DNA of 64,000 nt from a bacterium (lineage in GTDB: Bacteria > Bacteroidota > Bacteroidia > Chitinophagales > JADIYW01). Position numbers and translations under genes: made by a program. The notes below the pieces were generated by a model that was not told where the DNA came from, did no database searches, and saw nothing but the letters and a program-made list of their open reading frames with translations. Shown here piece after piece: positions 19,415 through 22,429 of this stretch (within the stretch, counting starts at the first letter, position 1; the number at the start of each line of letters is the position of its first letter). The stretch is from contig JBBCIS010000008.1 in NCBI GenBank assembly GCA_037189845.1, forward strand, positions 120,645 to 184,644. Reading direction: 5' to 3'.

Positions 19415-21967
19415 TTAATTGGCAGATTTTTTAAACGAGTACTTAAGTGTGACGCCAAATGTAAGCGGGTCACCTAATACAGCAGCATAATGACCGGCAT
19501 TACCACCTGCAGGAAGTAATTGCTCGAAATAATCTTTGTCAGTCAGGTTACGACCCCAAACTGTAATAGAAAGACCATTGTCTGCTCTGAAACCAGCTCT
19601 GGCATTCAGTAAAGCATAACCATCAATATTCAGATATTGCGATGGCGATGGGCTGGATGAGAATTTACTTCTGAAAAATAAATCCACTCCTAAGAAATAA
19701 TTACCGGCTAAACCCAATAGTTTACCGTAGATCTGACCATCTCCACCGAATGAACCTGACCATTTAGAGATACCCGGAAGCTCTCCACCTGATATATCTT
19801 TAAATGCAGCCGTTCCACCTGTTTCCTCCAATGGCACCGGTGCATTAGTGAATTTTACATATTTTCCATCAGTATAAGCTAATGCCGTGTTGAATGTAAG
19901 ATTTTTGTTGACACGGAAGTTTCCGTCTAATTCAACTCCATGTACTCTTACTTTTTCAGCATTGGCAAGATATCCTCTGTTTACGCCCAACTCGGCAGTT
20001 TGTACCTGAGTTTGATAGTCATTAATGAGTGTGTGGAAGTAGGTTACATTCAAAATGGATTTGGTATTTGGACTACTTTTGATACCTACTTCTATGTGAT
20101 TGACACGTTCAGGCTTGATTTCTGCCAGTTCCAACATTGGTTGACCGTTAGCATTTGGAAGCCCTGCCGGATTTACACCTACAGGTTTGTAGCTGAGTGC
20201 ATAAGTTGCAAAACCGTTGATTTTCTTTGCTCTGTATGATAAGGTTGCCTGACCGGAAAAATTATGGTTTTTTACATCAGCTATGAATGCCTGACTGCCG
20301 TATACTGCGTTTTTCAGTGCAATCAATGCAGGATCATCTGTTTGTAAGCCACCAAATGTAGTTCTTTTGTAGTCCACATATTTTTTGTCATAGTTGTATC
20401 TCACACCCGGTAAGAAGTGGAATTTTTTTAATACTTCCCAGTCTGCCTGTGCAAACACTGCGGCTCCGAAAGTTTCTAATGTAGAGTTTGTTTTGATGCC
20501 ATAACCTTCAAAAAGGTTAGGTGTTTGCCATAATGGGCTGGTAGAGCTTTGGGAGAATCTCCATTGAGCAGAACCTGATTCTTCTGTACCGTCAATTGTG
20601 ATATTCTGGTCGATTAAGAATACCCCGATAACACCGCTTAATTTCTTATTGATTTCCCCTGCGTATCTTAATTCCTGAGACCAGTTTCTGTGTTTGGAAG
20701 GGTTTTGAGATTTTGCGAGTGCCTGTAATCCTGTAAAGTCTCTGTCATTGGACGGATCCCAGTTCCAGAATCTCCACGCAGTAGTTGATGTCAGCTTACC
20801 AGGACCTAATTTGATATCCACATTGGCAGATGCTCCACCTACGTCATTACCTGAACGCCATGGAGTATCGTGGTCTATTAATCTGTCGAAAGGATTTCTG
20901 CTTGGCAGCTCATAATTCAGATCTTTAATGATATTATCAAATTGTCTGTATTCAGCTCTTTGAGTTTTTACTACACCGGCCACTACCTGTGCATAACCTT
21001 CCGGTCGCTGACGGTTGTAATCTCCTGATAAAGTAATAGCAATATTATCTGTCGGCAGATAGAGAATCTGTCCTTTTACACCCAGGTTATTCAGGTCATT
21101 GATATATTTTTGAGTCACTATATTGTATACGTTGCCATCTCTTTGTGTTCCTGCAAACGATATTCTACCAGCAACTTTCTTGCTCCATAATGGTCCGGTG
21201 ACAGATGCTTTTGCCTGAATATATCCATAGTTTCCATAGCTGGCTTCAAAAGTAGCACCTGGCTGGAAGCTTGGTTTTCGGGTGGTAATATTGATAGCTC
21301 CTGCAGTTGTGTTTTTACCGAATAATGTTCCTTGTGGACCACGCAGGATTTCAACCCGTTCTACATCTATAAAGTCAAAAGTAGCAATTGCAGGTCTTGC
21401 ATGGTAAACTCCATCAATGTATACACCTACGCCCGGATCAATACCGTCATTTGTCAATCCAAATGTAGAGCCCAGACCACGAATGTTCAATGTTGTATTT
21501 CTTGGATTAGAAGTATATAACTGTAATGTAGGCGCACTTTCTTTGATTCTGTTTACGTTGAATGCTCCCTGGTCGTCAATTGCTTTTCCTCCGATAACAG
21601 AAATTGCAATTGGAATTTCTTGTAAGGTTTCTTCTCTACGACGTGCTGTTACTGTTACTTCTGTCAGTTCGATATTGTCATCCAAAATAATATCCAGATG
21701 AGTTTTTTCTTCTTCGATTTTGATTTCTCTGGTATTATAACCAACAGAACTGATTTTTAGAATATAAGGAAGTTCTTCAGGAACCTGAAGTTTAAAATTG
21801 CCGTCTTCATCAGCAATTGCATACAATTTTTCATTTTTAACTTCTACAGTGGCAAAAATAACAGGCTCATTAGCCGAATTTCTGATTTTTCCAGTGATGA
21901 ATTTTGCTGCATATGCATCTTGACCGATGAATAGTGCAATGGTAAGGAGTGTAAGTATTTTTTTCAT
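19415..21967 (-). CDS. TonB-dependent outer-membrane receptor with N-terminal CarboxypepD_reg-like domain; sulfur-depleted
   Basis: Signal peptide, VTVTARRREETLQEIP, plug motif ERVEILRGPQGTLFGKNTTAGAINI, barrel ending near YSF; no SusD partner; 0 Cys and 2 Met by manual count. Confidence 0.95.
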   Translation of the reverse strand: MKKILTLLTIALFIGQDAYAAKFITGKIRNSANEPVIFATVEVKNEKLYAIADEDGNFKLQVPEELPYILKISSVGYNTREIKIEEEKTHLDIILDDNIELTEVTVTARRREETLQEIPIAISVIGGKAIDDQGAFNVNRIKESAPTLQLYTSNPRNTTLNIRGLGSTFGLTNDGIDPGVGVYIDGVYHARPAIATFDFIDVERVEILRGPQGTLFGKNTTAGAINITTRKPSFQPGATFEASYGNYGYIQAKASVTGPLWSKKVAGRISFAGTQRDGNVYNIVTQKYINDLNNLGVKGQILYLPTDNIAITLSGDYNRQRPEGYAQVVAGVVKTQRAEYRQFDNIIKDLNYELPSRNPFDRLIDHDTPWRSGNDVGGASANVDIKLGPGKLTSTTAWRFWNWDPSNDRDFTGLQALAKSQNPSKHRNWSQELRYAGEINKKLSGVIGVFLIDQNITIDGTEESGSAQWRFSQSSTSPLWQTPNLFEGYGIKTNSTLETFGAAVFAQADWEVLKKFHFLPGVRYNYDKKYVDYKRTTFGGLQTDDPALIALKNAVYGSQAFIADVKNHNFSGQATLSYRAKKINGFATYALSYKPVGVNPAGLPNANGQPMLELAEIKPERVNHIEVGIKSSPNTKSILNVTYFHTLINDYQTQVQTAELGVNRGYLANAEKVRVHGVELDGNFRVNKNLTFNTALAYTDGKYVKFTNAPVPLEETGGTAAFKDISGGELPGISKWSGSFGGDGQIYGKLLGLAGNYFLGVDLFFRSKFSSSPSPSQYLNIDGYALLNARAGFRADNGLSITVWGRNLTDKDYFEQLLPAGGNAGHYAAVLGDPLTFGVTLKYSFKKSAN

Positions 21968-22010
21968 TTTATGATTTTGATATTGTTGTAAATGTTTGAT
22001 TGGTTAGGTG

Positions 22011-22061
22011 TTACAATATGCCACAACAATAGGGTCTGATAAAAATGAGTTGATTCTTCAT
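22011..22061 (-). CDS. Putative Cys-Cys leader peptide MKNQLIFIRPYCCGIL (16 aa)
   Basis: ATG AAG AAT CAA CTC ATT TTT ATC AGA CCC TAT TGT TGT GGC ATA TTG TAA, located between a TAnnTTTG promoter and the receptor start. Confidence 0.65.
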   Translation of the reverse strand: MKNQLIFIRPYCCGIL

Positions 22062-22084
22062 GGTGTCTAAGTATGATTCGGCAA

Positions 22085-22092
22085 CAAAGATA
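22085..22092 (-). promoter_or_regulatory. Bacteroidota sigma70 -7 element (TATCTTTG) for the leader-receptor transcript
   Basis: Exact TAnnTTTG match 23 nt upstream of the leader ATG. Confidence 0.7.
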
Positions 22093-22095
22093 TGA

Positions 22096-22163
22096 ATAGA
22101 TTTCTATATTCCTACTAATATTATAGATTAAATAGAAATAATAGATTAAATAGAGTTAGTAGG
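22096..22163. promoter_or_regulatory. Operator-like region with a direct repeat and a flanking inverted repeat
   Basis: ATAGATTAAATAGA at 22123-22136 and 22141-22154; CCTACTAA (22111-22118) and TTAGTAGG (22156-22163) are inverted. Confidence 0.5.
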
Positions 22164-22429
22164 GTTTGAGAATCAAAAAATTAGAATCAAAAAAATTATT
22201 GATTAAGGTGAAAAATTTAGCCGGATGTAAATGAATAGCCGGTTATCTGATTGTAATTCTGACAATTATTGAACTGTATTAAAATTTTGTAATTCTGTAA
22301 CTTTTTGAGAGATATTAAAGCCCGGAAAGTCTCCAGCCCCCAAAGAATGCTCTAATATTAAGAAAGGTTAAATATTTGCAAAAAGGACTGATTTTTATTG
22401 AATAGTCTGAGCCTTTATTATTTTTGAAT

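Follow-up and report, generated by a model that had tools for sequence, protein, structure and literature searches.

The DNA analysed here is a 64,000-nt stretch of contig JBBCIS010000008.1 (GenBank assembly GCA_037189845.1) from a bacterium of the Bacteroidota; we call the whole stretch the window and number positions from its first nucleotide. An identical contig occurs as record JBBCKK010015528.1 in assembly GCA_037189325.1, in which contig numbers run above 15,000, against 15 contigs in the genome analysed here; this bacterium may have been binned from the assembly of a host or a metagenome. It contains a candidate cysteine-sensing leader open reading frame (ORF) placed ahead of a gene for a TonB-dependent receptor, and all leader and receptor features lie on the minus strand. 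The receptor gene (19415..21967) encodes a protein of 850 amino acids, in which a domain search recognized a CarboxypepD_reg-like domain at the N-terminus as well as Plug and beta-barrel domains; the protein reaches no specific NCBIfam equivalog. Upstream of it, a Bacteroidota-type -7 promoter box, TATCTTTG (TAnnTTTG; 22085..22092), is the single occurrence of this motif on the minus strand of the 456-nt intergenic region, where ∼0.26 occurrences would be expected. Relative to an operator motif (see below) and to the leader ORF, the box takes the same position in orthologous loci. The leader ATG (22061) lies 23 nt past the last base of this only -7 box, so that a 5′ untranslated region of ∼15-18 nt is predicted. 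The ORF (22011..22061) has 16 codons plus a stop (TAA, 22013-22011), and its predicted translation is MKNQLIFIRPYCCGIL. Its tandem cysteine (Cys) codons, TGT TGT (22023..22028), are the proposed stalling and sensing site, and the Cys cluster is conserved across lineages. A spacer of 43 nt separates the leader stop from the receptor ATG at 21967. An earlier, sequence-only reading had listed the box, the ORF with its TGT TGT codons, the spacer and the receptor ATG, and each was recovered exactly, in sequence and in coordinates. That reading had also described the spacer as free of an intrinsic terminator; none was detected, nor any terminator-like site or U-run, in the leader plus spacer (21968-22084), and an Rfam scan of the leader gave no family match.

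The receptor is almost free of sulfur residues. It has no Cys and one internal methionine (Met), and its Cys plus Met content is the lowest (rank 1/976) among the ORFs of at least 400 amino acids in the genome, for which the median is 2.8%. This is a property of the family: the ∼155 orthologues (L002-L200), of ∼850 amino acids each, are near sulfur-free, most with 0 Cys and ∼0-2 internal Met, with means of 0.04 Cys and 0.9 internal Met in the 79 orthologues from genomes, and with 0 Cys and 0-4 Met in the 76 metagenomic copies. Depletion of sulfur residues in proteins that are induced by sulfur starvation is an established pattern.

Cysteine-codon leaders in the receptor family and in the same genome

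Upstream of the receptor, a Cys-cluster leader ORF was found in 64 of 81 genome loci and in 53 of 76 metagenome loci. As a background value, an ATG-started ORF with CC occurs within 260 nt upstream of 3.2% of the ORFs of at least 200 amino acids in the genome that carries the window. Relative to this background, a CC or longer run was present in 7 of the 14 non-Flavobacterium orthologues that formed a random, even sample across the phylum (binomial P = 9e-8). The sequence-only reading had proposed a cysteine-sensing leader and had expected a conserved short ORF with CC ahead of orthologous receptors; this recurrence, far above background, speaks for both.

Nearly all Flavobacterium loci share one layout, namely a conserved palindrome, the TAnnTTTG box and, ∼45 nt further on, the ATG of a frame that is 28-47 codons long and variable in its N-terminal part. 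The last codons of this frame read MMCMC(W) and lie 45-55 nt upstream of the receptor ATG. The first ATG past the -7 box and the Cys codons share a reading frame in 85 of 90 Flavobacterium-type loci, and the 11 distances observed are all multiples of three. Such in-frame-only variation in length is a signature of a translated frame. The leader clusters of other lineages are RCC, RCCCL, RCCCC and HCCCCCCC in Chitinophagaceae-like genomes, YCCC and SSCCCC in Sphingobacteriaceae-like genomes, and SYCCC, PMCCCMM, DCCCCC, FYCC and SYCC in metagenomes. One metagenomic leader, L161 (MKPPIIPYCCRPKLRKQY), has the P-Y-C-C motif in common with the window leader. Across lineages only the Cys cluster is conserved, and the length and the remaining sequence of the peptides vary. 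The position of the leader start also differs: at locus L011 the ATG lies 4 nt past the -7 box, i.e., the ORF is near-leaderless. Transcriptional variants of the leader-receptor unit, with a terminator, and terminator-less variants appear to coexist in the phylum. The L194 leader carries a terminator-like hairpin with a U-run after the Cys codons (MRRIRSYCCMHR), and the L121 leader likewise carries one.

The receptor gene of the window has no close relatives. It is absent from 5 of 5 same-genus genomes and present in 1 of 19 other same-family genomes (L002, 57% identity, without a leader ORF), and no relative above 65% identity was found in genomes or metagenomes (the best has 65%). Hence, the exact leader is not alignable at the nucleotide level, and it is the architecture that can be compared.

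The whole assembly was scanned for CC-containing upstream ORFs. Among the few with at least three Cys codons in a row three stood out, with runs of MCCCC, CCCCC and CCC. The leader MGKSCKISMCCCCRNSDRVR (MCCCC; L083:170-295, plus strand) precedes a gene of the nitrite/sulfite-reductase family (708 amino acids), a leader ending in AAAACCCCCQLTKGRGMSKAK (L084:1024-1187, minus strand) precedes the cysteine synthase gene cysK, and the leader MMLRKMSGQMNCCCTNLV (L085:1350-1476, minus strand) precedes metY, the gene for O-acetylhomoserine sulfhydrylase. All three are followed by a strong intrinsic terminator, which in the metY unit consists of an 11-bp stem and T8, and the three units are classical transcription attenuators. 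An Rfam scan of them returned only a sub-threshold Phe_leader match, and no family covers them. Of the 19 relatives in which metY was matched, nearly all of them members of the same family, 12 retain the metY leader, with runs from CC to CCCCC; MetY itself ranks third-lowest in sulfur content among the long proteins of the genome. Evidently, this organism reads the supply of Cys-tRNA through leader ORFs, and the receptor leader would be a terminator-less relative of these units. The features of the window locus are real, and each of them alone is close to chance; their significance comes from the conservation among orthologues and from the parallel elements in the same genome.

Predicted pairing of the Cys codons with the initiation region

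The Tyr-Cys-Cys codons, TATTGTTGT (22031-22023), are the perfect reverse complement of ACAACAATA (21989-21981), and two G-U pairs extend the duplex. The resulting 5′ arm, UAUUGUUGUGG (22021..22031, minus strand), comprises the Tyr-Cys-Cys codons plus GG, and the 3′ arm, UUACAACAAUA (21981..21991, minus strand), lies at -24..-14 from the receptor AUG. The complementarity, its extension and the distance of 14-24 nt from the receptor start, all claimed before, were reproduced, and the Cys-codon stem is the core of the minimum free energy (MFE) fold of the leader. The duplex of both arms has an energy of -10.7 kcal/mol (z = -2.08, p = 0.045), which beats 95.5% of dinucleotide shuffles; a second run gave z = -1.76.

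The accessibility of the initiation region was modelled with a ribosome footprint of 30 nt positioned at the first Cys codon, for which the pairing probabilities were recomputed. With the ribosome on Cys, the modelled probability of being unpaired rose from 0.27 to 0.94 for positions -30..-14 relative to the receptor AUG, and from 0.56 to 0.85 for positions -20..+13; for positions -13..-1 it was 0.74 in the free leader and 0.83 with the ribosome. A Flavobacterium leader behaved similarly in the same model (0.49 to 0.74 for -20..+13). The A-rich proximal initiation region of the receptor, UCAAAAUCAUAAA (21968..21980, minus strand), is mostly unpaired in both modelled states. As modelled, the hairpin does not bury the start codon, and stands instead at the 5′ edge of the initiation region. 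Bacteroidota initiate translation without Shine-Dalgarno (SD) pairing and rely on an unstructured A-rich upstream region. In such a phylum, a hairpin at the edge of the A-rich region could well limit initiation.

Pairing of the Cys-codon arm with a segment that ends 12-24 nt 5′ of the receptor AUG was found in five lineages, with differing sequences. Besides the window stem, these are L161, in which the 5′ arm UUACUGUUGUCGA pairs with UCGAAAACAGUAA at -29..-15; the L169-type stem, with UUGCUGUAUG and a 3′ arm, CAUACAGCAA, within -35..-12; the SYCCC-type stem, with UUGUUGUUG and CAACAACA at -33..-24; and the Flavobacterium stem, in which the Cys/Met codons GUGUAUGUGUUGGUA pair with UACUAAUCACAUAUAC at -27..-12. 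In L161 UAC-UGU-UGU pairs with ACAGUAA, and in the window UAU-UGU-UGU pairs with ACAACAAUA, so that the synonymous Tyr change from UAU to UAC is matched by a change from AUA to GUA in the partner. The Flavobacterium duplex has a z of ∼-4 relative to shuffles, and across 36 distinct Flavobacterium leaders the share of paired cells in the stem is 88%, compared with 16-52% in controls that have the partner shifted 1-3 columns. An apparent G/A-C/U covariation noticed by eye in the Flavobacterium leaders was in the wrong register and was discarded.

Operator-like motif and gene neighbourhood

In all lineages the -7 box has a conserved palindromic motif (CTACTAA-N4-ATAGA / AGTCTA-N9-TAGACT) close by on its 5′ side; in the window this motif falls within 22096-22163. 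One copy that matches the orthologue motif, CTACTAATATTATAGA (22112..22127, plus-strand reading), is 19 nt upstream of the -7 box, and a weaker copy, CTACTAACTCTATTTA, lies at 22147-22162 on the minus strand. The motif was noted in the leaders of the window, L011, L016, L030 and L087-L092. It reads TCTACTAATTTTATAGA in Flavobacterium and AGTCTAnnAAnnnnTAGACT in Chitinophagaceae, and is present in Sphingobacterium loci too; in Chitinophagaceae-like loci a second copy is found between the leader stop and the receptor ATG. The palindrome is probably a transcription-factor site. A gene for an Rrf2-family regulator is located directly upstream of the receptor in 59 loci, nearly all of them from Flavobacterium, which makes an Rrf2-type regulator the obvious candidate binder. 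The genome that carries the window encodes an Rrf2 protein, 50% identical, at C9:127834-128160, next to a DUF2490 gene on another contig. A genome-wide scan for CTACTAA-N4-ATAGA gave 3 exact matches, a number close to chance, and no regulon could be defined from it. Elsewhere in this genome (C8:454766-454781), a candidate site agrees with the Flavobacterium consensus TCTACTAATTTTATAGA at 17 of 17 positions and lies 21 nt upstream of a gene that, judged by eye, resembles one for a 1-Cys peroxiredoxin.

The neighbours of the receptor gene in the window are unrelated to sulfur: a class 1 fructose-bisphosphatase is encoded downstream, and the upstream gene, which is divergent, encodes a sigma-54-dependent response regulator. 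A link of the receptor to this NtrC-type regulator through a sigma-54 promoter was considered and rejected by eye, given that TGGCAT-N5-AACA in the leader misfits GG-N10-GC. A hairpin that resembles a terminator, CTGGAGACTTTCCGG with a T-rich tail, was noted upstream of the receptor promoter at 22322-22336 (minus strand), and there is no upstream gene on that strand for it to terminate.

At orthologous loci several neighbours are related to sulfur. In a Chitinophagaceae genome the receptor is preceded by a fusion of siroheme-synthase-N (CysG-N) and TauE, and is followed by genes for a DUF2490 protein and for O-succinylhomoserine sulfhydrylase (MetZ). Two sulfatase genes lie directly upstream of the receptor in Parapedobacter, and in a metagenome-assembled genome of the Prolixibacteraceae it is flanked by a binding-protein-like gene and a gene for a Cys/Met pyridoxal phosphate (PLP) enzyme. 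A DUF2490 gene was found downstream of the receptor in 50 of the 81 loci compared, and DUF2490 may be an outer-membrane protein of the sulfur regulon. DUF2490 homologues of the genome under study adjoin an Rrf2 regulator (C9:126855-128160) and a Cys/Met PLP enzyme (C7:173626-175460). The name "sulfur-uptake receptor", given to the window protein by the sequence-only reading, seems reasonable in view of the nearly Cys- and Met-free family, the sulfur-related neighbours and the poly-Cys leaders on three sulfur genes of its own genome.

Proposed mechanism, alternatives and known systems

The Cys-cluster leaders of the orthologues, the near sulfur-free receptor family, its sulfur-related neighbours and the poly-Cys leaders of the same genome argue for a leader that senses cysteine by ribosome stalling and raises receptor expression when cysteine is short; we give this reading a probability of about 0.85. 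For the specific mechanism we lean, by a narrow preference, towards translational unmasking of receptor initiation. For the window locus we infer that the ORF is translated, that ribosomes stall on it and that this unmasks receptor initiation; the sense in which the receptor is regulated and its substrate are likewise inferred. Transcription would start a few bases past TATCTTTG, and the 16-codon leader ORF would be translated. With plentiful Cys-tRNA, the ribosome would pass the Tyr-Cys-Cys codons, reach the stop and depart; UAUUGUUGUGG would then pair with UUACAACAAUA, and the hairpin, with the base of its stem at -14, would abut the A-rich initiation region of the receptor and keep initiation low. 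When Cys-tRNA is scarce, the ribosome would pause with a Cys codon in the A site and cover the 5′ arm, so that the 3′ arm would be left single-stranded and the receptor would be translated. With no Cys and a single internal Met, the receptor could be made under sulfur shortage, and it would presumably import an organic or esterified sulfur source. A transcription factor on the promoter palindrome probably adds a second layer of control.

Several observations weigh against this reading. The leader has just two Cys codons, and the hairpin taken alone barely exceeds chance: the fold of the whole 131-nt leader has a z of -0.99, and 34 of 200 shuffles fold equally well. Over 35 non-Flavobacterium leaders the mean duplex z is -0.19, with only 4 below -1.64. 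ACA-rich or A/C-rich sequence is common before Bacteroidota starts, so that ACA-type partners are easily found and energy alone is indecisive. A covarying stem had been expected in the orthologues; the geometry does recur in five lineages with different sequences, but within Flavobacterium no compensatory changes were found by RNAalifold and pair counts on the 36 leaders, no pair being altered on both sides in more than one cell. The window stem spans only -26..-14, and the start codon and positions -13..-1 are mostly open in both modelled states, hence any translational effect could be modest. A ribosome that terminates normally at the UAA also briefly covers part of the 5′ arm. Finally, some orthologues lack any leader, including L002, the one same-family relative with the receptor, and several Chitinophagaceae-like leaders and some others have T-runs or terminator-like hairpins after the Cys codons.

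Some of these points would suit a leader that senses cysteine in the same way and whose output is set by transcription or by the fate of the mRNA. The stalled ribosome could then keep Rho from loading, change how RNA polymerase pauses or shield the mRNA against cleavage, and the hairpin would be secondary. The other Cys leaders of the genome and several orthologous receptor leaders use terminators or T-runs, which would make the device basically transcriptional in this phylum, and the stem leaves the proximal initiation region open. In addition, Rho dependence was the first suggestion made for the Cys leaders without terminators in Mycobacterium (PMC1262725). However, the spacer of the window has no terminator, its 43 nt are A-rich and C-poor and look like a poor Rho loading site, and the start-adjacent geometry of the stem recurs in five lineages. 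We regard an output of this kind as the main alternative, unlikely but still worth serious consideration.

It is improbable that the window ORF and hairpin are non-functional or coincidental and that the receptor is controlled only by a palindrome-binding factor, of the Rrf2 type or other. Such a simpler arrangement would agree with features that are each near chance when taken alone, with a conserved operator-like motif that overlaps the promoter, and with orthologues such as L002, L088, L093 and L094, which have the motif but no Cys leader. Chance does not easily account for the frequency of Cys-cluster leaders ahead of receptors of this family, which far exceeds the background (P = 9e-8), for the PYCC motif and stem geometry common to the window and L161, or for the poly-Cys leaders on three sulfur genes of the genome. 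The small ORF might also encode a functional Cys-containing micropeptide, e.g., metal-binding or redox-active, and no sensor; Cys-rich small proteins exist, and the leader is conserved as an ORF. Yet only the Cys cluster is conserved, the length and the rest of the sequence vary freely, and the same kind of ORF, with terminators, precedes cysK, metY and the sulfite reductase gene. We consider a micropeptide very improbable.

Returning to the cysteine-sensing leader, we put forward a broader proposal, tentatively and at slightly less than even odds, that Bacteroidota possess a phylum-wide, previously undescribed "cysteine ribulon". Leader ORFs with Cys or Cys/Met codons would gate the enzymes of sulfur assimilation by way of terminators, and would also gate a dedicated TonB-dependent receptor that is free of sulfur. 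In the genome studied here and in Flavobacterium, control of the receptor would be translational and would operate without SD pairing, the stalled ribosome freeing an A-rich landing region. The receptor, often together with a DUF2490 protein, would be a new outer-membrane uptake route for a sulfur compound. If the window leader senses cysteine as proposed, tRNA-charging-based cysteine sensing by leader ORFs would extend from Actinobacteria and Alphaproteobacteria to Bacteroidota, and with an outer-membrane transporter cysteine-sensing leaders would gain a target of a new class. This large family of "generic" TonB-dependent receptors, along with the associated DUF2490 proteins, would receive a testable functional label, as sulfur-starvation-induced, sulfur-free and likely engaged in the import of a sulfur source. 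The system would also offer a natural test case for the control of initiation by upstream RNA structure in bacteria without SD pairing, and its many natural variants, which have from two to seven Cys codons and may or may not include a terminator and a second operator, a ready-made comparative series.

The sequence-only reading knew of no described example for a Bacteroidota sulfur-uptake receptor, and in the literature searched, of which journal coverage was partial, we likewise found neither Cys leaders nor a TonB receptor regulated by sulfur described for Bacteroidota. The closest precedent is the polycysteine attenuator of mycobacteria. Cys leaders had been predicted in Mycobacterium earlier, and their absence of terminators was remarked upon (PMC1262725). 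In mycobacteria, ribosome stalling on leaderless polycysteine small ORFs (sORFs), which precede genes for sulfur or cysteine metabolism, relieves a duplex between the Cys codons and the downstream SD region; compensatory mutants support the duplex, two consecutive Cys codons suffice, and several loci per genome respond together as a "Cys ribulon" (Canestrari et al., bioRxiv 10.1101/834739). Translational attenuation that senses cysteine is therefore not in itself new. The window leader resembles this attenuator in being a short ORF with consecutive Cys codons ahead of the downstream gene, its TGT TGT reaching the minimum of two, and in the predicted pairing of these codons near the downstream start; in the window the arm lies at -24..-14, and the start codon and positions -13..-1 are mostly open. 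The two differ in that the mycobacterial sORFs are leaderless, whereas the window ATG lies 23 nt past the -7 box. The mycobacterial duplex masks an SD region, and the window stem, in a region with no SD, abuts an A-rich region at -14. The window target is an outer-membrane TonB-dependent receptor, and the window element is known from its sequence alone, whereas the mycobacterial one is experimentally supported.

With attenuators of the trpL/hisL type the window leader shares an ORF enriched in codons for the sensed amino acid and, as proposed, the principle that the position of the ribosome selects the RNA structure. It differs from these, and from the poly-Cys units of its own genome, in having neither an intrinsic terminator nor a U-run. 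A Cys-tRNA-sensing role has also been predicted for the uORFC-8-2 motif, a tandem-Cys upstream ORF plus terminator found ahead of cysS in Rhodobacterales (Brewer et al. 2021, PMC8632094). Both uORFC-8-2 and the window leader have two tandem Cys codons, highly conserved in uORFC-8-2, inside a stem. In contrast to the window leader, uORFC-8-2 ends in a U-run terminator, has a tRNA synthetase gene as its target and belongs to Alphaproteobacteria, and the two have no sequence similarity. The sequence-only reading had chosen the erm/cat leaders as its comparison. The two would share the principle that a ribosome stalled on a leader ORF opens a hairpin that limits downstream initiation, but the mycobacterial sORFs are the nearer parallel and the likeness to erm/cat is mechanistic only. 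Stalling on erm/cat leaders depends on a drug and on the nascent peptide, and not on tRNA charging, and no resistance gene lies downstream of the window leader. Moreover, the erm/cat hairpin sequesters both the SD sequence and the start codon, whereas in the window pairing is confined to the distal part of the initiation region.

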